NCBI GenBank assembly: GCA_043799405.1
Contig: JAZDNT010000003.1
Location: forward strand, 271,461 to 335,460
Source: Candidatus Kerfeldbacteria bacterium
GTDB taxonomy: Bacteria > Patescibacteriota > Patescibacteriia > SBBC01
Direction: 5' to 3'
Length of the DNA: 64,000 bases
Below, piece after piece: positions 9,969 to 30,235 of the stretch; position 1 is the stretch's first letter, and each line of letters opens with the position of its first letter. A program made the translations under genes and the position numbers. The notes under the pieces were generated by a model. That model made no database searches. It was not told where the DNA came from and was given only the letters and a program-made list of their open reading frames with translations.

Positions 9969-11291
9969 CTAGGCAACGCTCTTCTCCATTTCCATACTGA
10001 TAAGTCGATTCAACTCCGCTGCGTATTCCATCGGCAATTCCTTCACGATCGGCTCGATGAACCCGTTTACGATCATGGCTGATGCTTCAGCTTCGGTCAA
10101 TCCGCGGGAACGTAGGTAGAACAGTTGTTCATCGCCGAGTTTCCCGACCGTTGCCTCATGGCTCACGGTGGCCGTGAGTTCGCTGCTCTGCACCGTCGGA
10201 TAGGAATCCGCGCTGCTTCGCGGATCGATCAGCAACGAGTCGCACCGCATGTGTGACCGTGCACTACGAGCTCCCCGCGCAACGCGGACAAGCCCTCGGA
10301 ACGACGTCCGGCCACCCTGCTTTGCGACCGACTTCGACGTGATTACCGACGTCGTTTCGGGGGCTCCGTGGACCATGCGGGCGCCCGTGTCCTGATGCTG
10401 TCCCGTTCCTGCAAGCGAGAGCGACAGCATGCTGCCATGGGCTTTCCTGCCGACGAGAAGACAGCCGGGATACTTCATGGTCACGCGCGAGCCGATGTTG
10501 CCGTCGATCCACTCCATCACACCCTCTTCCTCGACGCGCGCGCGCTTTGTCACGAGATTGTAGACGTCCCGCGACCAGTTCTGCATCGTTGTGTAGCGGA
10601 CCTTCGCGCGCTTCCCGACAAAAATCTCGACGACACCGGCATGCAAGCTGGCTGCCGAGTACCGCGGTGCCGTGCATCCCTCGATGTAGTGCATCGAACT
10701 GTCGTCGTCCGCGATAATGAGCGTCCGCTCGAACTGCCCGAGCCGCTCGGCATTGATCATGAAGAACGCCGACAGCGGCGCCGCTACTGTAACGCCCTTC
10801 GGCACGTAGATGAACGACCCGCCGGACCATGCCGCGGAGTTCAGTGCCGCGAACGGGTTGTCGTGCGCCGGTACCAGTGTTCCGAAATACCGACGGACGA
10901 TCTCCGGGTGCTCGCGTACGCCATCCTCCATGCTCGAGAACACGACGCCGAGCTTCCGAAGAGCGTCACGGTAACGATGGTAGATCATTTCCGAATCGAA
11001 CTGCGCGCCGACGCCGGCGAGCAGTTTCCGCTCCGCCTGCGGCACGCCCATGCGGTCGAAGGCGCGTTTCACGTCACGGGGCACGTCGCGCCATGACCGT
11101 GTCGCATCGCCTATCGGCTTTAGGTAGTATTTCAGATCACCGAACCGGAGACCTGTAAGACTCGGCCCCCACGAAGGCCGTCCGCATTTCCTGAACGCTG
11201 CGAGCGACTTCAATCTCGATGCGGTCACCCATTCCGGTTCATGTTTCTGCACCGAGATGCTGCGGACGACATCGGCCGATGGTCCGGTCAT
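9969..11291 (-). CDS. sufB: Fe-S cluster assembly protein SufB
   Basis: 440 aa with NSAAWSGGSFIYVPKG, TLIIADDDSSMHYIEGCTAP and GDEQLFYLRSRGL motifs of SufB. Confidence 0.9.
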   Translation of the reverse strand: MTGPSADVVRSISVQKHEPEWVTASRLKSLAAFRKCGRPSWGPSLTGLRFGDLKYYLKPIGDATRSWRDVPRDVKRAFDRMGVPQAERKLLAGVGAQFDSEMIYHRYRDALRKLGVVFSSMEDGVREHPEIVRRYFGTLVPAHDNPFAALNSAAWSGGSFIYVPKGVTVAAPLSAFFMINAERLGQFERTLIIADDDSSMHYIEGCTAPRYSAASLHAGVVEIFVGKRAKVRYTTMQNWSRDVYNLVTKRARVEEEGVMEWIDGNIGSRVTMKYPGCLLVGRKAHGSMLSLSLAGTGQHQDTGARMVHGAPETTSVITSKSVAKQGGRTSFRGLVRVARGARSARSHMRCDSLLIDPRSSADSYPTVQSSELTATVSHEATVGKLGDEQLFYLRSRGLTEAEASAMIVNGFIEPIVKELPMEYAAELNRLISMEMEKSVA

Positions 11292-12415
11292 CGCATCCTC
11301 GCTGCATCCACGAACCGCCCGTAGCCGTTCTGTGCGACCTGTGAAGCCAGTCGCCGGTCCCCCGATCTCACGATCTTTCTTACAATTCCGCGGCGAGTAT
11401 CCATCTCAATGACATCCCCATCTCGAAACACCTGTGTTGCCTCTTTCGTTCCGACGATGCACGGTTTTTTCAACTCACGCGACACAATCGCGGCATGACA
11501 CATCAGTCCTCCTTCATCCGTCACGATCCCTTTTGCCCGCTTCAGCATTGGAAACATCTGCGGGTTAGTCATGCCGGTGACTATAATTTCTCCCGCTTCG
11601 AGCCGAGTGGTGTAGGTAAACGAAAAATGACGTCGGACTCTGCCCCGAACGACATACGGTACCTGATATGCAACCCTTCCATAGACTTCTCTTTCATCGC
11701 CAGCCGGTAACAGTCGCCGTTTCCAACTCTGAAAAGCTGGCCCGGTCAGAATGACCCAACGTCCGCCACGCTGCAGCAGCACGTACCCGTGCTCTCGAGC
11801 TCGAACGGCTTGTGGAATGTTTCGAAAAAGCGACTTCGCGCCTTTTCGAAATTCATCGACTGAATGCATCAACAAGAGTTTTGAGGAAATATGAAGCTGC
11901 CGACCGAGGCGTTGCACCTCACGGATCAGCATATCTTCAAGGATACTCAACCGCTTATGAGCCTCAATTTTATAGTGGCCGATGTACTTCAGCATCCGGT
12001 ATACGCCGGGTTTACTGCTGTGTTTTTCGACACCAGCGAGCGACGTGCCGTCGGTATAGAAGTAGCTTTTTCCTAAATCGTAAAAGAGTAAAAATATCAA
12101 CTCGATCCTTTGTATTCTCTGTTGAATGTTCACACGACCGACGAACTGTTTTCTGATTCGATCTACGGTCGAAAATCGCTTTCTACCTTCGACAAACATC
12201 TGCTTCCAAGACCGATTGTGAAGAAGACGTTTAAGCGTCAAGTTGCTCGCTTCCCGCAGTCCTTTCTTAGAAAGGTAAGCTGAAAAAATTGGCGGCGGAT
12301 TAGTGAATAAGAACACATAGTCAACGTTGTAGTAGTCTGTGTGATATTGAAAGGCATCAATCACTAATAGCGTGAAGTCTTGACGATAATGAAGATGATA
12401 TAAATTTCGTTTCAT
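11288..12415 (-). CDS. PEP-utilising-enzyme mobile (phosphohistidine swivel) domain protein with SufC-derived C-terminal tail
   Basis: 375 aa. The C-terminal block GEIIVTGMTNPQMFPMLKRAKGIVTDEGGLMCHAAIVSRELKKPCIVG is the PEP-utiliser swivelling domain. The last ~30 aa (IVRSGDRRLASQVAQNGYG) duplicate the SufC C-terminus. The N-terminal 250 aa are AT-richer and unassigned. Confidence 0.65.
   Translation of the reverse strand: MKRNLYHLHYRQDFTLLVIDAFQYHTDYYNVDYVFLFTNPPPIFSAYLSKKGLREASNLTLKRLLHNRSWKQMFVEGRKRFSTVDRIRKQFVGRVNIQQRIQRIELIFLLFYDLGKSYFYTDGTSLAGVEKHSSKPGVYRMLKYIGHYKIEAHKRLSILEDMLIREVQRLGRQLHISSKLLLMHSVDEFRKGAKSLFRNIPQAVRAREHGYVLLQRGGRWVILTGPAFQSWKRRLLPAGDEREVYGRVAYQVPYVVRGRVRRHFSFTYTTRLEAGEIIVTGMTNPQMFPMLKRAKGIVTDEGGLMCHAAIVSRELKKPCIVGTKEATQVFRDGDVIEMDTRRGIVRKIVRSGDRRLASQVAQNGYGRFVDAARMR
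11348..11375. repeat. 28-nt perfect direct repeat, copy 1 (SufC-tail duplication)
   Basis: cagtcgccggtcccccgatctcacgatc is identical to 12495..12522. Both copies encode IVRSGDRRL on the minus strand. Confidence 0.9.
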
Positions 12416-19799: not shown

Positions 19800-20081
19800 A
19801 TGGCCGATGAAAAAAAGAAGGTGAAGAAGGTCGTCGTGAACCGCGACCTCTGCATTGGCGCGGCGAGCTGTATCGTGAATGCGCCGGGTGTTTTTGAGCT
19901 CGACGCCGAGAACAAGGCGGTCATGAAGCTCGACAAGGGCGCGAAGAGCTCCGGTCCTTCGGAACGGAAAGACCTCGAAGACAAAACAATCGACGACGAA
20001 ACGATCATCAATGCAGCGCAGTCCTGCCCGACCAAGGCGATCTTCGTGTACGACGAGGACGGGAAGCAGATCTATCCATGA
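19800..20081 (+). CDS. small single-cluster ferredoxin
   Basis: 93 aa. The DLCIGAASC ... SCPTKAI pattern (CxxxxxC...CP) matches [3Fe-4S]/[4Fe-4S] mono-cluster ferredoxins. ATGA overlap with the next gene. Confidence 0.7.
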   Translation: MADEKKKVKKVVVNRDLCIGAASCIVNAPGVFELDAENKAVMKLDKGAKSSGPSERKDLEDKTIDDETIINAAQSCPTKAIFVYDEDGKQIYP

Positions 20082-21322
20082 TACAGACGAAGTACCTGAT
20101 CGTCGGGGGCGGGGTCGCAGGAACCTCCGCTGCCGAGACCATCCGGCTGAAAGACAAGACGTCAAGCATCCACATCGTCTCGGACGAACCGTACCGGTTC
20201 TACTCGCGCATCATGCTGTCAAAGCCATCGTTCTTCCTCGGGAAGATCCCGTTCGATTCGGTCTTCCTAAAATCGGAGTCGTGGGCAAAGGATAACAGCA
20301 TCAGTACGACGTTCAGGCAGCGGGTTGTCTCTTTGGATACGAAGAAGAAGCTTGTGACGCTGAAGGACGGCAACGAGATCGCCTACGAGAAGCTCCTGCT
20401 GGCGCTCGGCTGCGACGTTTGTCGCTGGACCATCCCCGGAGCAGACAAAAAAGGCGTTCACTACCTCCGTACGCTCGATGACGCGAAGGGCATCATTGCG
20501 GACGTGAAGACAGCGAAGAAAGCGGTCGTCATCGGAGGCGGGTTCATCGGCTTCGAAATGTGCGACATGCTGAAGCTCGCAGGCCTCGATGTAACGCTCA
20601 TCATCCGCGAGAAGTACTTTTGGGAGCCTCTGCTCGATGAGCCGTCCGGACGCATGATCGAAGCGGCACTGAAAAAAGGAGGAGTGAACATCGTTTACGA
20701 AACGCTCGTTGATGAGGTCATTGGCAGAACACGCGTCGAGGGAGTGAAGCTCAATAGCGGAGCGACCATGCCGGTCGACATGATCATCGTCGGGATCGGG
20801 ACGAAGACCACGCTCGACTGGATTAAAAATGCCGGGATCTCCTGCAACCGAGGCGTACTGGCGAACGAATTCTTGCAGACGTCCGCGCCGGACGTATACA
20901 CTGCCGGCGACTCTGCCGAGTACGGGGACAGGATCCTGAACGAATACATCCAGTTCGGCAACTGGGCGAATGCGCAGCTGCAGGGCAAAATAGCAGCAGA
21001 GAACATGATGGGCGGTAACATACCGTTCAAACACGTCTCGTTCTATACTGCACAGGGCCTCGGGACCGCGATCGTGTTTGCCGGCGACATTCGCATACTC
21101 CCCGGAAGAACGGTCGTAACGCGGGGAATGCCCGCATCCGGGGGCTATACCCGCATCATCATTTGGAACGGCGAGGTTGAAGGTGCTACGATGATCAACA
21201 GGACCGTCGACCTGCAGCCGCTTCTGAAAATCATTGAACAGGATGTTAAAATTGAGCCGTACTTGAAACAGCTTGCTGACCCTTCATTCGACCTGAAGTC
21301 GATACCTTTGCAGAAACCATGA
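20078..21322 (+). CDS. FAD-dependent pyridine-nucleotide oxidoreductase (ferredoxin/rubredoxin reductase-like)
   Basis: 414 aa. FAD fold YLIVGGGVAGTSAAE, NAD(P) fold AVVIGGGFIGFEM, and TAGD motif VYTAGDSAE. Overall layout is that of class-I two-dinucleotide-binding-domain flavoproteins. Confidence 0.75.
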   Translation: MIQTKYLIVGGGVAGTSAAETIRLKDKTSSIHIVSDEPYRFYSRIMLSKPSFFLGKIPFDSVFLKSESWAKDNSISTTFRQRVVSLDTKKKLVTLKDGNEIAYEKLLLALGCDVCRWTIPGADKKGVHYLRTLDDAKGIIADVKTAKKAVVIGGGFIGFEMCDMLKLAGLDVTLIIREKYFWEPLLDEPSGRMIEAALKKGGVNIVYETLVDEVIGRTRVEGVKLNSGATMPVDMIIVGIGTKTTLDWIKNAGISCNRGVLANEFLQTSAPDVYTAGDSAEYGDRILNEYIQFGNWANAQLQGKIAAENMMGGNIPFKHVSFYTAQGLGTAIVFAGDIRILPGRTVVTRGMPASGGYTRIIIWNGEVEGATMINRTVDLQPLLKIIEQDVKIEPYLKQLADPSFDLKSIPLQKP

Positions 21323-21400
21323 TCCCGTTAGAAGTCCCCTTAATAAAACATTGAACATGAACGACCATGGCCAACTTGCCAAAAGTTACTTCTAACGGGA
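21323..21400. mobile_element. MITE-like element copy 1 (78 bp) at oxidoreductase-stop / hydrogenase-start junction
   Basis: TIRs tcccgttagaagt (21323..) and acttctaacggga (..21400) are perfect. Flanked by tga (21320..21322) and tga (21401..21403). The interior is homologous to copy 2. Confidence 0.65.
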
Positions 21401-21888
21401 TGACGCCGCCGAAGAAAAAGATACGCATTGGATGGTTCTCGTTCTCGTGCTGCGAGGACAGCACCATCGTGTTCACCGAGCTCATGAACGACCACTGGAA
21501 GGAGTGGAAGGAGCTCTTCGACTTCCGGCACGCGCACGTATTGAAAAGCAAGAATGTCATGGACGACATGGACATCGCGTTCGTTGAGGGAGCTATCGCA
21601 TCGGAAGCGCATGCAAAAAAGCTCAAGACCATCAGGAGCAAGGCGAAAAAGCTCGTCGCGATCGGCTCCTGCGCGGTCATTGGTATGCCGTCTGCACAAC
21701 GGAACAGCTTTACGCCGGAACAAATGCACGAGATACAGTTCCTCATCGACCGGTTCAAGGCGCTGCCAAAAGTATTAAGGGTGTCTGACGTCGTGAAGGT
21801 CGATGCGCAGGTTCCCGGCTGCCCCATGGATCCGAAGCTCTTCCTCGCTGCAGTGGATGGACTTGTCAAGGAATTTCTTAACGCCTGA
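21400..21888 (+). CDS. [NiFe]-hydrogenase small subunit (short, proximal-cluster-only type)
   Basis: MTPPKKKIRIGWFSFSCCEDS..., GSCAVIG and VPGCPMD supply the four Cys of a proximal [4Fe-4S] cluster, as in NuoB/HoxY-like short small subunits. The ORF track start at 21367 is an in-frame ATG inside the inserted element. Confidence 0.75.
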   Translation: MTPPKKKIRIGWFSFSCCEDSTIVFTELMNDHWKEWKELFDFRHAHVLKSKNVMDDMDIAFVEGAIASEAHAKKLKTIRSKAKKLVAIGSCAVIGMPSAQRNSFTPEQMHEIQFLIDRFKALPKVLRVSDVVKVDAQVPGCPMDPKLFLAAVDGLVKEFLNA

Positions 21889-21891
21889 CCT

Positions 21892-23211
21892 ATGCACACG
21901 ATAGACCTCACCATGGACCGCATCTCGAAGATCGAGGGTTCGGCGTCGCTCGACGTCAAGGTCGTGGACGACAAGGTCACGGAATGCCACTTCAAAACGA
22001 CGGAGTACAAACGCTTCTACGTCGAGGCGATGAAGGGAAAGCCTATCATCGCGCTGCCGCAGCTTTTGTCGCGTATCTGCGGCACGTGCTCGAACGCGCA
22101 CCTCTTGTGTAGTATCGCGGCGTGCGAGGATGCGCTCGGCATCGTCCCGAGTATGCAGACCATGCTGCTCCGGTGGCTCACCATGTATGGCCTGAACATT
22201 CGCGACCACGCCCTGCACCTCTACCTCTTTTCGATGCCGGACCTCTACGGCAAGGACGCGTTCCTCGATTTCGACGAGAACGACCCGGAGCAGCACCAGC
22301 AGCTGCACGACGGCTTTGAAATAAAAGCGGCTGGAAATTTCCTTGCGACCCTCGTTGCTGGCCGTAGCGTGCACGCACTCCACCCGACGATCGGCGGATT
22401 TCTACGCTTCCCCGATGCCGAAGGTATCAAAGAAGCGATCACAAAGCTCGAGAAAGCGCGCCCAGCTGTTCTGCGGCTCATCGACACGTTCGCGAAAGCG
22501 CCGTTCCACCTTGACCGGAAAACGCACTATATGGCGCTCGTTCCCGAACGGTTCGGATACCTGACCGGCTCGATCTACAGGACCGATACCGGCGAAACGA
22601 TCCCGCCGCGCGAGTTCCGGCAGCACCTTGAGCATGTCGTTCTCCCCTACTCGCAGGCATCAGCGTACAAGCACAAAGAACATTCGTACATGGTAGGTGC
22701 TCTGGCGCGCCTCAACATCGCGAAAGAAAAGCTCCACGCAAAGACAAAGCAAACGTTAGGAAAACTCCTTGACCGGTTCCCGTCAACGGATATTTTCGAC
22801 AATAACCTCGCGCAGGCTATCGAGGTTCTTCACTGCCTCGATGATGCCGTAGAGATACTTAGGACCAGCTCATTCAAACCCGAGCCGGTCGTGAAAAAGC
22901 CGTACAAAGCCGGTATCGGCATTGGTGTTATCGAAGCGCCGCGCGGAACGCTCTACCATAAGGTCGAGATCGACGACAAGGGCATTGTCAAAGGCGGCGA
23001 GGTCATCGTCCCGACGAACCAGAACCAGATAAACATCGAAGAGGATATCGTTGTCCTCGTCGAAAAGCTGTTACCTAACACAGAAAAAGAAAAGCTCGAA
23101 TTCGAGATCGAAAAGCTCATCCGCGCGTATGATCCGTGCATGAGCTGCGCCGCGCACTTTTTGAAAGTGAATTGGCAATCCCTGAAGGCGAAGCCCCGCA
23201 CCGGAGCGTAG
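21892..23211 (+). CDS. [NiFe]-hydrogenase large subunit (cytosolic group-3-like)
   Basis: 439 aa. N-terminal RICGTCSNAH and C-terminal DPCMSCAAH Ni-Fe ligand motifs. A 17-aa extension follows the His, as expected for endopeptidase processing. Confidence 0.85.
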   Translation: MHTIDLTMDRISKIEGSASLDVKVVDDKVTECHFKTTEYKRFYVEAMKGKPIIALPQLLSRICGTCSNAHLLCSIAACEDALGIVPSMQTMLLRWLTMYGLNIRDHALHLYLFSMPDLYGKDAFLDFDENDPEQHQQLHDGFEIKAAGNFLATLVAGRSVHALHPTIGGFLRFPDAEGIKEAITKLEKARPAVLRLIDTFAKAPFHLDRKTHYMALVPERFGYLTGSIYRTDTGETIPPREFRQHLEHVVLPYSQASAYKHKEHSYMVGALARLNIAKEKLHAKTKQTLGKLLDRFPSTDIFDNNLAQAIEVLHCLDDAVEILRTSSFKPEPVVKKPYKAGIGIGVIEAPRGTLYHKVEIDDKGIVKGGEVIVPTNQNQINIEEDIVVLVEKLLPNTEKEKLEFEIEKLIRAYDPCMSCAAHFLKVNWQSLKAKPRTGA

Positions 23212-23460
23212 CGACCGGTGCGTGGGTGAAGTGGGACAAAGCGTAAGCGCTGGCGAAGCGGCTATCTTTTCATTACCACCTCCCCGTCCTGTCGAATGAC
23301 GGGACAACCCCTCCACAGTAGCGGAGAGGTTCTTAAGGTGCCGAGCTCCATTCCTTGACATTGTTACGGATAGTGCTAACGTCAGCACGTTGCTGTCCCC
23401 ATAAACCAGTCGACCTGAACGCCTATTGACAGATCGGCAGAAACACCACGTCCCACCGCC

Positions 23461-23925
23461 ATGAGAATGGCAAGGAGTTCACTCATGTTTGAGATACCAG
23501 AGGTTCTGTATGAGATTGTGAGGATGTTTGTGCTTTGTGCCGCTGGTATTGATCTCGTTTGGACGATCGTGTATGGTTTTTCGCTCAACTACCATTTCGA
23601 CTGGCGTGAATACTTCCATATTAAGTTTGTGGTCTACGGCGCCAGGACGCTCTTCCTCTTGGTATTTCTAGGGGTCACCCATATTACGTACAACCACCTG
23701 AACGACGAGCCAATACTGTATGGTGCGGCGAAAACGGCTGTGCTTGTGTGCGCTGTTGCGTACATACTGTACGATGTCGTGATGGCGCTCTATCATGGCA
23801 TCCGTGATTTCCGTGGGTATTCGGACCCGGAATGGCCCATATCACTGATGTACCCACACGCCCTTCGTGCGTGTCTACTGGCCGTGATTGCCGGTGCGTA
23901 CTGTGGGCTCATCTGGGTCTCATGA
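23461..23925 (+). CDS. hypothetical 4-TM membrane protein
   Basis: 154-aa ORF with four hydrophobic stretches. No family recognised. Confidence 0.4.
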   Translation: MRMARSSLMFEIPEVLYEIVRMFVLCAAGIDLVWTIVYGFSLNYHFDWREYFHIKFVVYGARTLFLLVFLGVTHITYNHLNDEPILYGAAKTAVLVCAVAYILYDVVMALYHGIRDFRGYSDPEWPISLMYPHALRACLLAVIAGAYCGLIWVS

Positions 23926-24059
23926 TTCTGAACACCGGCCACGTTCTCTTCTTGAAGAGGACCATTCCGGGAGGAAGTTCTGGTATACCTCACCATCGGA
24001 CGCCCTCCGTTCGTCACCCTTTGTTCGTTCTCGTGCACCCTGCGCGAGTACGACCTACC

Positions 24060-24099
24060 GAAGCCCGAGCACTCTCTTGCCCGGGCTTCATGATTTTTT
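24060..24099 (+). terminator. putative intrinsic terminator
   Basis: gaagcccg-agcactctcttgc-cgggcttc followed by atgatttttt. Confidence 0.45.
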
Positions 24100-24136
24100 A
24101 CGCAAAAACCTCTGTTTCGACGAGTTGGTTTGCTTC

Positions 24137-24505
24137 TTAAGAAACCATCCGATCGACGAGGATCATCATTACCGCGCCGACGACCATGAGGTAGCCGAAG
24201 CGAGGCTGGAGTTTCTTGTTTCTGGATAATGCTGCAAACGCGATCAGGACAAGCCATACCGCGACCGCACCAACGGTCATAGGAACGCCGACCCTGAGAA
24301 TCTCGGAAAGGATGTGGCGGAGTCCGGCAGTGAAGAACGGCGGGTAGAACACTACCTCGCCGTGGTAGATGTGCTCCGGAATGAGCCAGGCAACCCCGCC
24401 CCAGAGCAGGGCAAGAAGCCACGCAACGTGAAAGCGCGGTGTGATCTTCTTCTTTGCAGCGGTCACGATGATTGCTGCAGTTGTCGGAGCAATGAAGCAG
24501 GCCAT
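24137..24505 (-). CDS. hypothetical membrane protein
   Basis: 122-aa ORF with 3-4 hydrophobic helices. The overlapping 209-aa Arg-rich ORF in another frame is rejected. Confidence 0.4.
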   Translation of the reverse strand: MACFIAPTTAAIIVTAAKKKITPRFHVAWLLALLWGGVAWLIPEHIYHGEVVFYPPFFTAGLRHILSEILRVGVPMTVGAVAVWLVLIAFAALSRNKKLQPRFGYLMVVGAVMMILVDRMVS

Positions 24506-24543
24506 ACCGAAAGTATAGCCGAAGTTGAGATTTTTTTACACTT

Positions 24544-24813
24544 CTACGCTGAATAGCCTCGGCGCTTCATTTTTGTATTGATGCTCATCTTTTCCCCTGG
24601 TTTTCTTACGGTTGCCACCTTTCTACCGTATGACTGCCCTTCAACACGCGCTATCAATTCTTCACCATTGATATAATCTTTCAATATTCCCTTAGCTTTT
24701 TGATAGCCCCGTTCTCTTTTCTCTGGAGTATCAATATCAGCCAATCGGAAAAATCGCTTTCGCGTATCCTCAAAAGTGTCTCCATCAATTACCTTTTTTA
24801 CTCGAACTCTCAT
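24544..24813 (-). CDS. short thermonuclease (SNase)-like protein
   Basis: VIDGDTFED..FRLADIDTPE....YGRKVATV matches SNase core motifs (DGDT, RL.GID.PE, YGR). At about 89 aa it is shorter than canonical SNase. Start at MRVRVKK; the ORF track start is 24864. Lies in the low-GC island. Confidence 0.45.
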   Translation of the reverse strand: MRVRVKKVIDGDTFEDTRKRFFRLADIDTPEKRERGYQKAKGILKDYINGEELIARVEGQSYGRKVATVRKPGEKMSINTKMKRRGYSA

Positions 24814-24829
24814 TTCTACCACCTCCTTC

Positions 24830-25717
24830 CTATGGATTGATACATGCCTTACGTTCTCGATCACTTGGTCGATCGCCCCAATCGCTCATTGCGACCGCAC
24901 AATATCCACGTAATTCAACGATTGGATGCCCGTTCCTACTATCTATAAGACCAACACTGAACACGCCACTATTACCATTCGTCTGTTCTGGCGCTTCGAC
25001 AATCCATGACGGCATCGGCCCTAATTTCATCGGATTGCCTTTGTCATCAAGAACAAGAAGGTCAACCCTGACTTGTTTTGAAATTTTTCCTTCAGGCGCT
25101 GTTATGGTTAGACAAGATGTAAATTCCTTTCCTATTGGCAGGGAAACATCGAGATGAAACCGATTTAATCTATCAACATGACCGCCTCCGTCATTGGGTT
25201 TAATGTATTCACCGTTTGCATTCACACCAGAAATTTTTTTCAGTGCAATTGTTCGGTCGTCGCCATCACCATGAATAACCTGCAGTTTATTATTCAAGCG
25301 AAACGAAAAATCAATTGAGGACGTCTGTGACAAAACCTTTGTGCAGACAAATACATTTTCTGGCATTGGTTTTGGTGACTGAATGTATCCCTGAGGATCA
25401 CGAATAGACCGTCCCTTATAACGATCTTTCCACTGTCGTCGGTAACCGTCCTCCGATAAAGTCAGAACCCCGTCATGATTCTCTAAATCATTGACTACTT
25501 GATCGCTCTTTACCCATTCCGCGAATGGCGTTCTATCAATCATCATTTCCGGTTGAGACGTTGGGCTCGGTTTCTGTTGCGTTATCCTGGCGATTGCATA
25601 TCCTCCCATTAGGCTGACCAACAATATAACAAAAGTACCCAATGACAATCCCTCCCACGACCAAAAGGTGTAACGGCGTCGGGCTCGAACATCTTGTTTG
25701 TTTTGCTTTATCTGCAT
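24830..25717 (-). CDS. hypothetical membrane-anchored protein
   Basis: 295-aa ORF with one TM helix (LSLGTFVILLVSLMGGYAIA). Low-GC codon usage. No family recognised. Confidence 0.4.
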   Translation of the reverse strand: MQIKQNKQDVRARRRYTFWSWEGLSLGTFVILLVSLMGGYAIARITQQKPSPTSQPEMMIDRTPFAEWVKSDQVVNDLENHDGVLTLSEDGYRRQWKDRYKGRSIRDPQGYIQSPKPMPENVFVCTKVLSQTSSIDFSFRLNNKLQVIHGDGDDRTIALKKISGVNANGEYIKPNDGGGHVDRLNRFHLDVSLPIGKEFTSCLTITAPEGKISKQVRVDLLVLDDKGNPMKLGPMPSWIVEAPEQTNGNSGVFSVGLIDSRNGHPIVELRGYCAVAMSDWGDRPSDRERKACINP

Positions 25718-25831
25718 ATTATCTATCTTCAGCGATGTGCCGATCTACAACGTGTGCTATAATGAGGAAGCCGAGTAATCGGCAGCAAAAAAATCTTCTC
25801 TTCGCGGGGAGGATTTTTTGCGATTCTTACT

Positions 25832-26209
25832 TCACGTTGGTTCATGTTCTTTTAGTTCAATCACGTAAATTGGTCCAATTGTTTCATCTGGTACGATTAC
25901 TGCCGGGTATTTCCCACTATATTTTAAAGGATCAATGTCGTAGAATCGTAAAAATGATCTCGCGGATATTGATGCGCTTCTGTTGGCTTCTGAATAATTC
26001 AATCGATAACAGCTATCGGACTTATCTTTAAGGAATTTAAAGGCAATTGCCTTCTTTTCTTTATCGAAAAAGAGCTCAACATAATTAAAATCAGCAACTC
26101 GGTGTTTTTCACAAAATGCGTGGGGAAGCCCAATAAAATGGGATTTCGTGAGACTTATTCGATCGTCCCATTTATCACCGACCCCTGAAAATCGTTCGAA
26201 GTTAAACAT
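25832..26209 (-). CDS. hypothetical protein
   Basis: 125-aa ORF in the low-GC island, preceded by a good promoter-like sequence. No family recognised. Confidence 0.4.
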   Translation of the reverse strand: MFNFERFSGVGDKWDDRISLTKSHFIGLPHAFCEKHRVADFNYVELFFDKEKKAIAFKFLKDKSDSCYRLNYSEANRSASISARSFLRFYDIDPLKYSGKYPAVIVPDETIGPIYVIELKEHEPT

Positions 26210-26217
26210 ATATCTGG

Positions 26218-26246
26218 AGCATATGCCTTTTCTTTTTACGTGTCAA
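26218..26246 (-). promoter_or_regulatory. putative sigma-70 promoter (near-leaderless) for 25832..26209
   Basis: Minus strand reads TTGACA - 17 nt - TATGCT. The -10 ends 8 nt before ATG 26209. Confidence 0.45.
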
Positions 26247-26317
26247 GCATAAATAGACATATTACATCACTTTTAATGACATATGTCAAAAAATGCTAAA
26301 TTTACCTCACTTCACTC

Positions 26318-27181
26318 CTATCTCATCCCCTCCAGCAGCTTTCTGATGTTCCGGCCGTTTGGCAATTGCTCAATAAGCGGTTTTTCTTTTATTGCTGTAA
26401 ACCCGTCTTCGAGTATCGGCATTTCCTTCCGGTAGAATATACCGATGGGAAGTTTTTCCTCGTTCTGTGCAGCTTTCCACGCTGCATCGCGATCCGCAGA
26501 GTTGTGCTGCAATGTTTCGAGCTTTACAACGCGGTCGTAGAACCACTTGTACGTGTTCACCTTGTTGAACGTGACGCACGGCTGGAAAATATCGACGAGC
26601 GCGAATCCGCGGAACTGGATCGCCTCTTTTATGAGCTGCGTCAGGTGCGTCGTATCACCTGCGAACCCGCGGGAAACGAATCCGCAGCCTGCAGCAAGCG
26701 CAAGCGTCAAGGGATTTACCGGCGTGTCGGTCGAGCCGAAGGGCGTCGACGGCGTCTTTGTCCCTCGCGCTGACGTCGGCGACGTCTGCCCTTTCGTCAG
26801 GCTGTACATCTGGTTATCGTGCACGAGGTACGTCACGTTCGGATTGGCGCGGATCGTGTGGATGAAGTGCGCCATGCCCTCGCCGTAGCCGTCGCCGTCT
26901 CCGCCGACCGCGATCGTCGTTACTCCGCTGTTCGCGAGCGCGATACCTTCTGCGACAGGAAGCGCCCGACCGTGCAGACCGTGGAAACCGTATGCCCTGA
27001 CGAAGTTCGCCTGGTTTCCCGAGCAGCCGATTCCGAACACGACAACGACCTTATGCACTGGAAGTTTCAGTTCGGCGAGCGCTTGCTTTAAGCTCGTCCA
27101 GAGACCGAAGTTTCCGCAGCCAGGGCACCACGTCGGAACGACCGGCGTTTTAAACTCGTCTTGTGGCTGTATCGTGCTCAT
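26318..27181 (-). CDS. 2-oxoacid:ferredoxin oxidoreductase beta subunit (TPP-binding)
   Basis: MSTIQPQDEFKTPVVPTWCPGCGNFG.., GGDGDGYGEG TPP motif. Start ATG 27181 restores the ATGA overlap once the element is removed. The ORF track start at 27199 lies inside the element. Confidence 0.85.
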   Translation of the reverse strand: MSTIQPQDEFKTPVVPTWCPGCGNFGLWTSLKQALAELKLPVHKVVVVFGIGCSGNQANFVRAYGFHGLHGRALPVAEGIALANSGVTTIAVGGDGDGYGEGMAHFIHTIRANPNVTYLVHDNQMYSLTKGQTSPTSARGTKTPSTPFGSTDTPVNPLTLALAAGCGFVSRGFAGDTTHLTQLIKEAIQFRGFALVDIFQPCVTFNKVNTYKWFYDRVVKLETLQHNSADRDAAWKAAQNEEKLPIGIFYRKEMPILEDGFTAIKEKPLIEQLPNGRNIRKLLEGMR

Positions 27182-27259
27182 CCCGTTAGAAGTCCTCATT
27201 AAATAAGATCAAATATGAACAATTGCTATCAGTATTTTTATGGGTGACTTCTAACGGGA
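27181..27259. mobile_element. MITE-like element copy 2 (79 bp) at OFOR alpha-stop / beta-start junction
   Basis: TIRs tcccgttagaagt (27181..) and acttctaacggga (..27259) are perfect. Flanked by tca (27178..27180) and tca (27260..27262), which read TGA on the coding strand. Confidence 0.65.
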
Positions 27260-29020
27260 TCATTTCTTTCTTGCAATCAAAGCAAGTTCTTTAGCAAGCT
27301 CGTCAGGGTCGAACGGCCTTCCGTCATACCGCCGTATCGAATGGTCAGGCGTGAAACCCGTGTACTCGCGGATGAAGCCGGCGAACTTTCCGCTTCGATT
27401 ACTCTCTACAATGACGGTCTTTTTCGCTTTCTTCATCGCTGCCATGAACACTTTAACGGGAAGAGGAGCTACCATCGGGACAACGACCGCGTTCGCGGTC
27501 TTTCCGTAGTTCTTTTTTAACGTTGCAAGCGCCATTTCGACCGGTCCGGCAGACGAACCCCACGTCACGACCGTGAGCGAAGCTTTTTTTGCTCCAATGA
27601 TTCGGGGTGGCATCGTCTTTTTCCGGAGCGTTGCTACTTTCCGTGCCCGACGTTCCATCTGCGCTATGCGGTGGTCCTTGTCCTCGTTCGAAAATCCGTA
27701 CTCGTCGTGCTCGTCCGAGTTCGCAAGGAACAGTCCTTTCGGGGTTCCCGGGATGGCGCGCGGACAGATCCCGTCAGTGACCCTTTCGCGGTATCGCAAG
27801 TAAGTTCCTTCCCCTTTCCATACCTTACCGCGCTTGATAGGAAGCGTTTTTAGGTCCTTCACTGCGACGCTGCAACGCCCTTCAGCAAGGTACTTGTCCG
27901 TCAGCACGATGACCGGCGTCTGGTAGACGTCCGCAAGGTTGAATGCGTGCTGGATAAGCGTAAAGCACTCGGCGTGCGAGGTCGGCGCCAGCACGATGCG
28001 CGGAAAGTCGCCCTGCGAAGCGTGCAAAACCTGCCGAAGGTCGCCCTGCTCGGTCCACGTCGGCATGCCAGTCGACGGTCCCGGACGCTGCGCATCAATG
28101 ATGACGATACCGACCTCGGTCATGGCGGCAAGACCGACCGCCTCGGTCATGAGCGAAAATCCCCCGCCGGACGTTGCTGTCATAGCGCGGACGCCCGCGT
28201 ACGCAGCGCCGATCGCGTTGTTGACCGCTGCGATCTCGTCTTCGGAGTGCCGTACGACCATCCCAAAACCTGGTCCATGCTGGGCTAAAAAGTGCAGGAT
28301 GGACGTTGCCGGGGTCATCGGGTATGCCGAGAAGAACTGGCAGCCGGCCTGGATGGCGCCGAGCGCTAGAGCATCGTTTCCCGTAAGCAGCACCCGCGTA
28401 TCCTTCGTTTTCGCGGGTGTAACCTGCCAGGGACAGCTCTTTCTCTGTGCGCTCGTTGCTGCCTTGTAGCCGGAAGCAAGCACGTCCGCGTTGAGCTTAA
28501 TAACCTCATCCCCTTTTTTACCGAACGTCTCGTCGATCACTTCATTCAGGTTGTCGAGTGGAATATCTAAAAGCGCGCAACTTGCACCGAGTGCCACGGT
28601 GTTACGCATCAGGACCTCTCCGCCGGATTTCTTTGCAAGGTCTTCTAACGGCAGACCGAACAGCAGCACATCGCGGCGCGAAACCTTCGATGGATCGAAC
28701 TTGGCAAACGTTGTATCCGTCGTATCATAGATGATCACGCCGTTCGGGCTCATCTCGGATAGGTGCAGGTCGATAGTCTCGCGGTTCAGCGCAACGAGGA
28801 TGCTGACCGATGTCCTATGGCTCGTGAGCGGCTCGGCTGAAGCCGTGACCTGGTCGGTATTGTGCCCGCCGCGTATGAGCGACGGGTACTCCGGGTAGCT
28901 GAAAACGTTCAGGCCCGCCCGCATGCAGATGCGCGCGAACATTTCTCCGGTCGACATGATGCCGAAACCGGCTTCGCCGCCTATTTTCCACGTGATGTCG
29001 TTCGTTCGTGCTGGCATCAT
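27260..29020 (-). CDS. 2-oxoacid:ferredoxin oxidoreductase alpha subunit (fused gamma-alpha type)
   Basis: 586 aa. N-terminal gamma-like WKIGGEAGFGIMSTGEMFA, then the pyrimidine-binding/transketolase-like alpha domain (YPMTPAT..., GFSLMTEA). Confidence 0.85.
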   Translation of the reverse strand: MMPARTNDITWKIGGEAGFGIMSTGEMFARICMRAGLNVFSYPEYPSLIRGGHNTDQVTASAEPLTSHRTSVSILVALNRETIDLHLSEMSPNGVIIYDTTDTTFAKFDPSKVSRRDVLLFGLPLEDLAKKSGGEVLMRNTVALGASCALLDIPLDNLNEVIDETFGKKGDEVIKLNADVLASGYKAATSAQRKSCPWQVTPAKTKDTRVLLTGNDALALGAIQAGCQFFSAYPMTPATSILHFLAQHGPGFGMVVRHSEDEIAAVNNAIGAAYAGVRAMTATSGGGFSLMTEAVGLAAMTEVGIVIIDAQRPGPSTGMPTWTEQGDLRQVLHASQGDFPRIVLAPTSHAECFTLIQHAFNLADVYQTPVIVLTDKYLAEGRCSVAVKDLKTLPIKRGKVWKGEGTYLRYRERVTDGICPRAIPGTPKGLFLANSDEHDEYGFSNEDKDHRIAQMERRARKVATLRKKTMPPRIIGAKKASLTVVTWGSSAGPVEMALATLKKNYGKTANAVVVPMVAPLPVKVFMAAMKKAKKTVIVESNRSGKFAGFIREYTGFTPDHSIRRYDGRPFDPDELAKELALIARKK

Positions 29021-29034
29021 TAATCAGCGTATCA

Positions 29035-29110
29035 TCCCGTTAGAAACTGATTTGGTAAATACATATGCATGATATATTGTTGTGTGAACAAAAGCTAGTT
29101 TCTAACGGGA
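29035..29110. mobile_element. MITE-like element copy 3 (76 bp) directly after the acetate kinase stop
   Basis: TIRs tcccgttagaaact (29035..) and agtttctaacggga (..29110) are perfect. Flanked by tca (29032..29034) and tca (29111..29113). Confidence 0.65.
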
Positions 29111-30235
29111 TCATGCAGCAACCGCGTCAACAATGGCCTGCTCCTCGTCCGTCGGTACCATGAATGTACGGATGCCCCGTGCTGCCGGAAGGTCACGCAG
29201 GATCATCTGCCGGATGATACGTTTTCCGCTGATCGGTCCGGTAAAGACGATCGCCTGTACAGTACTACTGAGCCCAAGGTATGCGGCAAGGTAGCGCCGG
29301 ATACGGTACGTGTAGACACCAAGCGCGAGTCTCGCCCGTGCTCTGACGGCTGCCGTGTATTTCCTGCGAGGCCACCCTGCTACAGGTTTTCCTATTGCTC
29401 CGAGAATGTCGCGCATGTCTTTGAGACCGCAGAGTCCAAAAAGGCCGGACTCATGCTCGAGAAGATATTTTACACGTTCAGCAGACCACCCGAGTTTGCT
29501 TTGTATATACAGCGGGATCGCAGGATCAATGTCGCCAGAACGCGTGAGCATTGTTAATCCCTCGAGCGGCGTAAAACCCATTGTCGTATCGACCGGTACA
29601 CCGTTCTGCCACAGTGTCATACTCGCTCCTGCGCCGAGGTGAATTGTTACAGCAGAAAATGACCGCAACGGCTTCCGAAGCTTCTTAGCTCCCTGACGGA
29701 AAACCCACGCGTGCGATGTGCCGTGAAATCCGTACCTTTCTATTGCAAGGAGCGTTGCTAAACGCCTCGGGATCGCATACGTTCGTGCGTGTTCAGGAAG
29801 CGAGCGGTATATCGCCGTATCGAACACGCCCCATTGTAAAGCCTTTGGCCACACCCGTTTCGCAAAAGAAACGCCTAAAAGGTTCGCGGGCTGATGCAGC
29901 GGCGCAAGATCAGCAAGCGTTTTTAAGTACTGGATAACAGACGGCGTCAGCCTCATGGGTTTTGAGAACCGCTTTCCGCCATGCACGATGCGGTGTGCTA
30001 TGATGTCAGGTTTAATCCCATAATCCGCAGCAACTCGCCGTACTTCGACGAGAGCTGATCTCAGATCTGGGACGTTCGCAACCCGAGTACGACGGCGGCC
30101 TTCTGAAACGACGTGTATGCGCGCCTGACGACCGAAGTGCTCAACAAACCCCCGCAGTACGATACGGCGGTTCTGGGCTACGGCGAACTTTACCGAGGAA
30201 GAACCAGCATTGAGAACGACGACATTCCGGGTCAT
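29111..30235 (-). CDS. ackA: acetate kinase
   Basis: 374 aa. VLNAGSSSVKF, HRIVHGG, ERYGFHGTSH and GDIDP motifs of the acetate/propionate kinase family. Confidence 0.85.
   Translation of the reverse strand: MTRNVVVLNAGSSSVKFAVAQNRRIVLRGFVEHFGRQARIHVVSEGRRRTRVANVPDLRSALVEVRRVAADYGIKPDIIAHRIVHGGKRFSKPMRLTPSVIQYLKTLADLAPLHQPANLLGVSFAKRVWPKALQWGVFDTAIYRSLPEHARTYAIPRRLATLLAIERYGFHGTSHAWVFRQGAKKLRKPLRSFSAVTIHLGAGASMTLWQNGVPVDTTMGFTPLEGLTMLTRSGDIDPAIPLYIQSKLGWSAERVKYLLEHESGLFGLCGLKDMRDILGAIGKPVAGWPRRKYTAAVRARARLALGVYTYRIRRYLAAYLGLSSTVQAIVFTGPISGKRIIRQMILRDLPAARGIRTFMVPTDEEQAIVDAVAA

Follow-up and report, generated by a model that had tools for sequence, protein, structure and literature searches.

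A 64,000-nucleotide stretch of a Candidatus Kerfeldbacteria genome (contig JAZDNT010000003.1, positions 271,461 to 335,460; the whole stretch that was analysed is called the window below) carries three similar short inverted repeats at gene junctions of its hydrogenase, OFOR and acetate kinase operons, which raises the question of what these repeats are and why they lie where one gene gives way to the next. An initial annotation had seen in them a nonautonomous transposon that targets stop codons or ATGA stop/start junctions. Our analysis indicates that they probably belong to a widespread family of small, hairpin-forming, non-coding mobile elements that resemble MITEs (miniature inverted-repeat transposable elements) and are moved in trans by a putative enzyme. 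The proposed targeting has to be revised, as the constant feature of the insertion sites is the start codon: of 131 copies of the family, 93 have a terminal A that forms, with the next two bases (TG), the ATG of an outward open reading frame (ORF) of 60 or more codons, which never happens at both ends of one copy, and only 17 of these 93 start-codon copies lie on stop/start overlaps as in the window. ATGA junctions are therefore a special case of the association with start codons. Random A positions in the same loci open such an ORF in 1.0% of cases.

Copy 1 (21323-21400, 78 nt) carries the arms TCCCGTTAGAAGT (21323-21335) and ACTTCTAACGGGA (21388-21400) around an AT-rich interior. Copy 2 (27181-27259, 79 nt) has TCCCGTTAGAAGT/ACTTCTAACGGGA as in copy 1, at 27181-27193 and 27247-27259, and copy 3 (29035-29110, 76 nt) has 14-nt arms, TCCCGTTAGAAACT and AGTTTCTAACGGGA. 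The inverted arms of 13-14 nt are perfect and TGA/TCA repeats flank each copy, just as had been described. The 11-mer TCCCGTTAGAA occurs exactly six times in the window, as three inverted pairs; with at most one mismatch allowed, none of 100 shuffles gave seven or more matches and none equalled the observed number. No additional copy was detected in the window, even with up to three mismatches per arm. All three copies fold into hairpins of -26 to -29 kcal/mol (z = -4.2 to -5.7) and their interiors have a GC content of 28-33%, compared with 54% for the window. The reported homology between the interiors stood for one pair only: copies 1 and 2 show a weak similarity on the same strand (z = 2.8, a score reached by 3 of 500 shuffles), whereas copy 3 has no significant similarity to either. 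Because the genes that follow copies 1 and 2 are on opposite strands, the two copies have opposite orientations towards these genes.

The neighbouring genes had been assigned to hydrogenase, OFOR and acetate kinase operons, and Pfam agrees. Copy 1 lies between a Pyr_redox_2 oxidoreductase gene (20078-21322, plus strand) and the gene of a NiFe-hydrogenase small subunit (21400-21888, plus strand, 162 aa), copy 2 between OFOR alpha (27260-29020) and OFOR beta (26318-27181, 287 aa), both on the minus strand, and copy 3 between acetate kinase (29111-30235, minus strand) and OFOR alpha. The left duplication of copy 1, TGA at 21320-21322 on the plus strand, doubles as the stop codon of the oxidoreductase gene, while the final base of the element is the A of the hydrogenase small subunit ATG (21400-21402, plus strand), which is completed by the TG of the right duplication (TGA, 21401-21403). 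At copy 2 the gene-proximal duplication (TGA, 27178-27180, minus strand) makes the OFOR beta ATG (27181-27179) together with base 27181, and the gene-distal duplication (27260-27262, minus strand) doubles as the TGA stop of OFOR alpha. At copy 3 one duplication (29111-29113, minus strand) doubles as the TGA stop of acetate kinase, and the other, on the OFOR alpha side, is the TGA at 29032-29034 (minus strand); the ATG of OFOR alpha (29020-29018) begins 14 nt beyond the element. The NCBI protein for OFOR beta (P0001) likewise has 287 aa and its start is called at the rebuilt ATG, and the hydrogenase small subunit counted from 21400 has 162 aa, equal to its orthologue in locus L121 of a relative. 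OFOR alpha as a whole lies between copies 2 and 3, whose outer flanks share a TCA repeat, and the segment 27181-29110 therefore looks superficially like a composite transposon; this is most likely a coincidence, because every local duplication is TGA/TCA.

Removing copy 1 or copy 2 together with one TGA leaves an ATGA overlap, a junction type whose coordinates at eight other ATGA/TCAT positions of the window had been given correctly, and orthologous loci really carry these empty junctions. Sites reading ATGA were found, as anticipated, in L121, L123 and L124. In L121, where OFOR beta is 82% identical, the OFOR alpha/beta junction is the empty overlap AACAATGACTAC and the oxidoreductase/hydrogenase junction, the site of copy 1, is the empty overlap CACCATGATCCC; empty OFOR alpha/beta junctions are also present in L123 (76%) and L124 (72%), and the acetate kinase/OFOR alpha spacer is without the element in L124 and L125. 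L123 carries an element at the exact site of copy 3 (L123:3143-3218) with the same TGA repeats, and its arms are identical to those of copy 3 at 28 of 28 positions and its interior at 36 of 48. From this comparison the pair would go back to one old insertion that was passed on vertically with its arms under constraint; that the same spot was hit twice is less likely. In L129, where OFOR beta is 93% identical, the site of copy 2 holds a 32-nt remnant (TCCCGTATTGC...TTTCTAA/CTAACGGGA), and a different 100-nt family member is nested in the right arm of this remnant, with the 4-nt repeat CTAA on both sides (L129:88-228). Nested copies were further found in L013, L032 and L115, and family elements evidently insert into one another's arms. 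Taken as a whole, these loci show that elements were gained, decayed and were inserted anew within the time that separates close relatives. The reading as a nonautonomous transposon, which the initial annotation had based on terminal repeats, duplications and internal homology, is supported by inverted repeats, duplications, several copies, empty orthologous sites, the L129 remnant with its nested copy and the lack of a transposase among the nearby ORFs scanned.

Two side observations concern the same junctions. The empty copy 1 site of L121 (region of L121:5147-5150, CACCATGATCCCGCC) reads ATGA-TCCCG, the last five letters being the first five bases of the arm, which may be a coincidence or a hint of an arm-like target preference. 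In L125 (4927-5000) and L126 (3037-3110) the spacer from OFOR alpha to OFOR beta consists of 74 nt of degenerate GCTAAC-like tandem repeats; these repeats are not the element, and the spacer is therefore a different kind of filler at the same junction.

To follow the arms beyond the window, species-representative genomes were scanned for the exact pattern TCCCGTTAGAA-N40-70-TTCTAACGGGA. This search for the arm pair, suggested by the initial annotation, was rewarded with further copies in at least 120 species-genome stretches with exact arms. Among the matches listed, to which all family counts refer, the stretches are mostly from Patescibacteria of many classes, and the other taxa are Planctomycetota, Omnitrophota, WOR-3, Stahlbacteria and a few bins labelled proteobacterial. 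Only two matches to the arm pattern came from viral contigs, and BLAST of plasmid and phage collections gave no match to the elements. Some family members lie on short contigs far from Patescibacteria, such as L089 (1.1 kb, from a Nanoarchaeota bin), or in bins labelled Gammaproteobacteria (L043, L063, L080, L083 and L104); these contigs from distant taxa could be mis-binned DNA of Patescibacteria or real horizontal spread. The elements are 62-125 nt long and have no coding capacity for a transposase. They begin with T and end with A, and consist of the conserved 11-nt arm (TCCCGTTAGAA/TTCTAACGGGA) and a variable interior. Local density can be high, with four copies in an 8-kb locus (L036) and three each in L009 and L079, and single arms in the loci are degenerate or nested small elements. 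Rfam scans at gathering score of the window and 18 loci returned tRNAs only, Rfam scans of two single elements by E-value gave chance-level matches only (E of at least 0.5), and a full-text literature search for the arm sequence and for start-codon, leaderless or Patescibacteria MITEs returned nothing relevant. The family is apparently undescribed so far.

Flanking duplications were tallied in 130 copies from the loci and the window, a copy from L123 that was fetched later bringing the number to 131. Repeats of 4 nt, usually of the form TGNN, flank 90 of the 130 copies (TGAA 23, TTCA 20, TCCA 11, TTGA 7, CTCA 7, TAAA 5, TGGA 5 and others). Repeats of 3 nt flank 10 of the 130; eight of these are TGA/TCA, the same repeat on either strand, and all eight, including the three of the window, are in ATGA contexts. 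Variants with C...G termini (L094 and L111) keep a 4-nt repeat, from which it follows that the terminal pair belongs to the element and that the duplication has 4 and not 5 nt. An asymmetric model, with an element TCCCG...CGGG and a 5-nt ATGAA duplication, was ruled out by the same variants, which keep the 4-nt repeat and give GTG.

The sequences around the 93 start-codon copies tell how the genes were entered. When the gene is to the right, the left flank directly before the element reads A (85%) T (80%) G (75%) R R. The base that precedes the left duplication is A in 85%, G in 4%, T in 5% and C in 4% of cases, which is near normal start-codon usage; the non-A bases (15%) correspond to GTG and TTG starts, which the element would have turned into ATG, and the C...G-terminus variant of L094 gives a GTG start. 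In 6 of the 93 copies the upstream gene now ends at the TAG of the distal arm (C-termini ...ESR*), separate from the downstream gene, in 19 the upstream stop is 7-13 nt distant, and 51 have no adjacent co-directional upstream gene. Of the 91 start-codon copies whose flanks were long enough for scoring, 25 have a -10-like hexamer with its end 7 nt from the left ATG, which is a leaderless geometry, and only 12 have an upstream Shine-Dalgarno (SD)-like motif. Because -10 boxes are common and SD-like motifs rare, many of the host genes in Patescibacteria look leaderless. TATAAT-like boxes ending 7 nt before the left ATG can be seen for instance in L053, L033, L068, L101 and L119.

Pairing of the arms extends beyond the conserved 11 nt. 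Of 93 copies, 53 have a stem of 13 bp and 22 one of 14 bp; position 12 pairs in 100% of the copies (A-T 57, G-C 31, T-A 4, C-G 1) and position 13 in 89%. Sixteen extra copies from the same loci have variant arms, and these are compensated (...GAG/CTC..., CCCC.../...GGGG, ...TTACAA/TTGTAA..., ...TTAAAT/ATTTAA...); 11 of the 16 are likewise on start codons, and truly decayed copies are rare. As the variable positions 12-13 still pair and the variant arms are compensated, pairing itself must be maintained. Two interior features depend on the orientation of the element to the gene. An SD-like AAGGAG just inside the proximal arm is found 21 times in one orientation and 3 times in the other, a pattern that copy 2 follows with its GAGGA at 27193-27197 (minus strand), just inside the gene-proximal arm and 11 nt 5' of the OFOR beta ATG. 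An additional, incomplete arm sequence (..AACGGGA..) beside the distal arm, in the sense able to pair with that arm, shows a bias of 31 to 2. A short ORF (MNPVR...) begins at the start codon left over from the duplication. In 20 cases it runs as far as the TAA of the proximal arm, in 7 to a TGA that overlaps the rebuilt ATG and in 30 to an interior stop; five read in frame into the gene. Some interiors also carry extended -10-like boxes (TGnTATAAT) that face the gene.

The small, non-coding size, the terminal inverted repeats, the target duplication and the dispersed copies with presence/absence differences are all those of a MITE, and together with the sites they suggest the following course of events. 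Integration would duplicate 3-4 target bases, mostly TG and the first bases of codon 2. The terminal A and the duplicated TG would re-create the downstream ATG, and the other duplication would keep the upstream sequence. At an ATGA overlap, as for copies 1 and 2, the left TGA would remain the upstream stop and A plus TG would serve as the downstream start, leaving both cistrons intact; copy 3 would be an insertion into the short acetate kinase/OFOR alpha spacer, directly behind the acetate kinase stop. In the mRNA the stem would sequester the start codon, and a ribosome that ends the upstream gene or reads the short upstream ORF would melt it, by which translational coupling would be roughly preserved. 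The stop codons of the arms, the SD-like sequences and the internal decoy arm would then be features that make insertions tolerable. As to the precision of the placement, it would result from a moderate target preference (T-G-R-A, with T at position 1, G favoured at 2 and a purine or A at 3-4) and strong purifying selection in compact genomes, or from a mechanism specific to start codons. On the first view, insertion one base into the start codon would be uniquely harmless, since the ATG is rebuilt and native signals would load ribosomes on the duplicated start. Insertions at CTAA and CTGCG within other elements show that TG is no strict requirement of the enzyme and thereby favour this combination of preference and selection.

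The lack of a transposase nearby, remarked on in the initial annotation, extends well beyond the elements themselves. Pfam scans of 40 of the 56 ORFs in the window gave no domain of a transposase, an integrase or an HUH enzyme, 0.86 Mb of flanks of family members contained no transposase, and 921 ORFs flanking family members, when clustered, gave housekeeping families only. Pfam scans of an element-rich planctomycete locus and of one viral contig found no transposase either. Arm pairs 250-5000 nt apart with matching repeats were considered as candidates for an autonomous element and rejected, as they are merely neighbouring small elements and none encloses an ORF. Matched yet different 4-nt repeats within one genome argue for staggered cleavage of the DDE type. 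Arms kept strictly complementary are rather a mark of enzymes that recognise single strands in folded form. We rank a putative trans-acting transposase first and a hairpin-reading system of the HUH type second.

Several points weigh against a MITE-like family placed by preference and selection. No autonomous element or candidate enzyme was found in these searches, and transposition is inferred from footprints only. No flanking repeat is present in 16 of the 130 copies, and the repeats otherwise have 3, 4 or occasionally 5 nt. A perfect, co-varying complementarity of the arms is unusual for the inverted repeats of ordinary DDE transposases, and the stem mismatches, one G-U and two A-C, give no evidence of selection on pairing at the RNA level; they are too few to show a G-U excess on the sense strand, as RNA-specific pairing would give. 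TTAA-type duplications are nearly absent and gene-preserving insertions one or two bases upstream are hardly seen, so a simple sequence preference accounts for the precision only in part. Copy 1 is oriented opposite to the family trend and is without the SD-like motif. Finally, the exact 22-nt arm pattern gives a sample that favours young copies or copies under constraint.

One could tentatively go further and regard the elements as a cross-phylum hairpin family that homes to start codons and is built to be expression-neutral: the ATG would be rebuilt, the stops of the arms would cap upstream frames, the stem would keep coupling, and subfamilies would bring an SD sequence, a promoter-like box or a decoy arm with them. 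Were this so, the family would amount to a mobile 5' leader module that installs itself and rewires how translation is initiated in streamlined genomes, via an enzyme class not yet linked to it. Somewhat more doubtful is a homing mechanism that reads the start site itself, through single-stranded DNA at leaderless promoters or through coupling to translation initiation, instead of preference plus selection. In its favour, the junction is exactly one base into the start codon in 72% of the copies, the base before the duplication is not fixed and tracks the usage of ATG, GTG and TTG, and positions 3-4 of the duplication track the usage of second codons (TGAA, TGGA, TGAG). Start-codon copies are also found in Planctomycetota with larger genomes (L024, L036, L039, L041 and L065), the -10 box is 7 nt upstream of the left ATG in the 25 copies counted above, and both insertions one or two bases further upstream, which would leave the gene just as intact, and TTAA-type duplications are nearly absent. 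However, copies also sit at promoterless operon-internal ATGA junctions (those of the window and the 17 overlaps of the family), within genes (TTGA, TAAA) and within other elements (CTAA, CTGCG). The material searched yielded neither an enzyme nor a guide, and sampling with exact arms may enrich copies that were selectively retained.

Mobilisation of a single-stranded hairpin, as in REPIN/RAYT or IS200/IS605 systems, is unlikely. In this scenario a single-copy HUH (Y1) enzyme of the host would recognise the folded 13-bp hairpin, which would fit the compensatory pairing even at freely varying positions, the well-defined stem (13 bp in the 53 copies mentioned), the rarity of decayed copies, the absence of a transposase between any arm pair and the strand-symmetric types of mismatch. 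HUH/Y1 systems make no target duplications, yet the copies of L009 carry different matched 4-nt repeats; moreover the arms are not palindromic REP units and are without the GTAG motif, and no RAYT-like gene was seen among the window ORFs scanned.

A selected cis-regulatory RNA hairpin, acting as a translational coupler or operator and conserved in place without being mobile, is very improbable and largely refuted as an exclusive explanation: it would account for the co-varying arms, for the copy 3/L123 pair (arms kept at 28 of 28 positions, interior 25% diverged), for the orientation of interiors relative to genes and for a strong fold that sequesters the AUG, but not for empty ATGA sites in close orthologues, flanking duplications, nested insertions and remnants, host genes that are unrelated housekeeping genes across phyla, one subfamily in frame inside coding sequence, the lack of a match to any Rfam family, or the opposite orientation of copies 1 and 2 relative to their genes. 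The initial annotation had held that co-varying arms would speak against mobility; the arms do co-vary, but mobility was nevertheless shown, which makes the hairpin a property that a mobile element maintains and not an alternative to mobility.

The subfamily found within coding sequence has the same arms and a GC-rich interior, and its members form very stable Y-shaped folds of -33 to -49 kcal/mol. In-frame members are L038:1986-2059, L025:1149-1216, L120:3929-3996, L003:2402-2472, L081:395-465 and L114:3818-3888. Their hosts are an M17 aminopeptidase, GatB (in two genomes, with a shared insertion site), MraW, an epimerase and a TPR protein, and the ORFs span the element in frame, with Pfam domains on either side. 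In the GatB pair the element is 94% identical, compared with about 69% for the flanking coding DNA. Intragenic copies with TTGA and TAAA duplications also exist. Ribosomal bypassing or an intron-like split gene was considered and dismissed, since the intragenic copies detected were all picked up as long ORFs that stay open in frame through the element; no split gene was found, and neither splicing nor bypassing is needed, because the apparent ORF pairs are distinct genes (YebC/RuvC, MltG/exonuclease, .../MetG).

Comparison with known systems shows likenesses to several of them. Correia elements (CREE/NEMIS) of Neisseria are non-autonomous elements of about 100-150 bp with inverted repeats, target duplications and many gene-adjacent copies; they are co-transcribed and form mRNA hairpins able to affect expression, and, as for the present family, no autonomous partner is known. 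The likeness lies in small, non-autonomous, inverted-repeat hairpin elements that are beside genes and co-transcribed. In contrast, the repeats of Correia elements have 26 bp and their duplication is TA; they are restricted to one genus and do not lie on start codons, whereas the family described here has arms of 11-13 nt conserved across phyla, a TGNN duplication of 3-4 nt and a terminal base that completes the ATG. Rickettsia palindromic elements (RPEs) are palindromic mobile elements tolerated in frame within coding genes, as is the GC-rich subfamily; the three window copies lie between genes and lack this type of insertion. RPEs differ in being limited to Rickettsia, in having other sequences and in not being known for start-codon placement. 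REPINs are likewise short, non-coding, intergenic, multicopy hairpins with maintained pairing and long vertical persistence, but they are species-specific, consist of two palindromic REP units with GTAG, lack a target duplication and come with a RAYT gene, none of which was found here: the arms are not internally palindromic, duplications are present, and no Y1_Tnp was detected in the 40 of 56 window ORFs.

MITEs of the IS5/IS1031 or PIF/Harbinger type, which had been proposed in the initial annotation, agree with the 3-nt TGA/TCA duplications of the window, as these fit the TNA rule; the family mostly has 4-nt duplications (TGAA, TGGA, TTGA, TAAA), against a strict TNA rule, and our searches gave neither a related transposase nor a longer element that shares these ends. 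The attC sites of integrons share an inverted core with GTTAG/CTAAC, a stem conserved in structure, a variable terminal structure of 40-70 nt and a position directly 5' of ORFs. The order of the boxes is reversed, however, with GTTAGAA at the 5' side and TTCTAAC at the 3' side here and RYYYAAC...GTTRRRY in attC, and the elements have perfect stems without extrahelical bases, real target duplications and housekeeping neighbours with empty orthologous sites. The reversed boxes, the perfect stems and the housekeeping operon context set the family apart from attC. The family is best regarded as a cross-phylum hairpin MITE whose last base completes the start codon of the host, and apart from an autonomous partner every property of a MITE that could be examined was found in it.

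Patescibacteria, or bacteria of the Candidate Phyla Radiation, have tiny, dense genomes thought to be poor in repetitive DNA. A mobile family common to many of their classes and to unrelated phyla would be a new example of selfish DNA surviving with almost no neutral sites. If the placement on start codons is mechanistic and not selective, it would be a targeting principle not described for bacterial transposons. There are also consequences for annotation. Operon junctions that resemble regulatory spacers may be insertions, and an element can add a C-terminal ...ESR or an internal stretch of about 25 residues to a protein. Gene callers can misplace starts, as at the in-frame ATG within copy 1 (21367-21369, plus strand), which a mechanical ORF caller would choose and which would add 11 residues (MANLPKVTSNG) to the hydrogenase small subunit; ...TSNGM extensions recur, and the (T/V)SNGM string encoded by the arm precedes many genes in other loci, which makes it a likely source of mis-called starts. 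Elsewhere in the window, a 375-aa ORF (11288-12415, minus strand) lies between SufBD-like and SufC-like (ABC ATPase) genes, and its sole Pfam match is the PEP-utilising-enzyme mobile domain, an odd companion for a suf operon.

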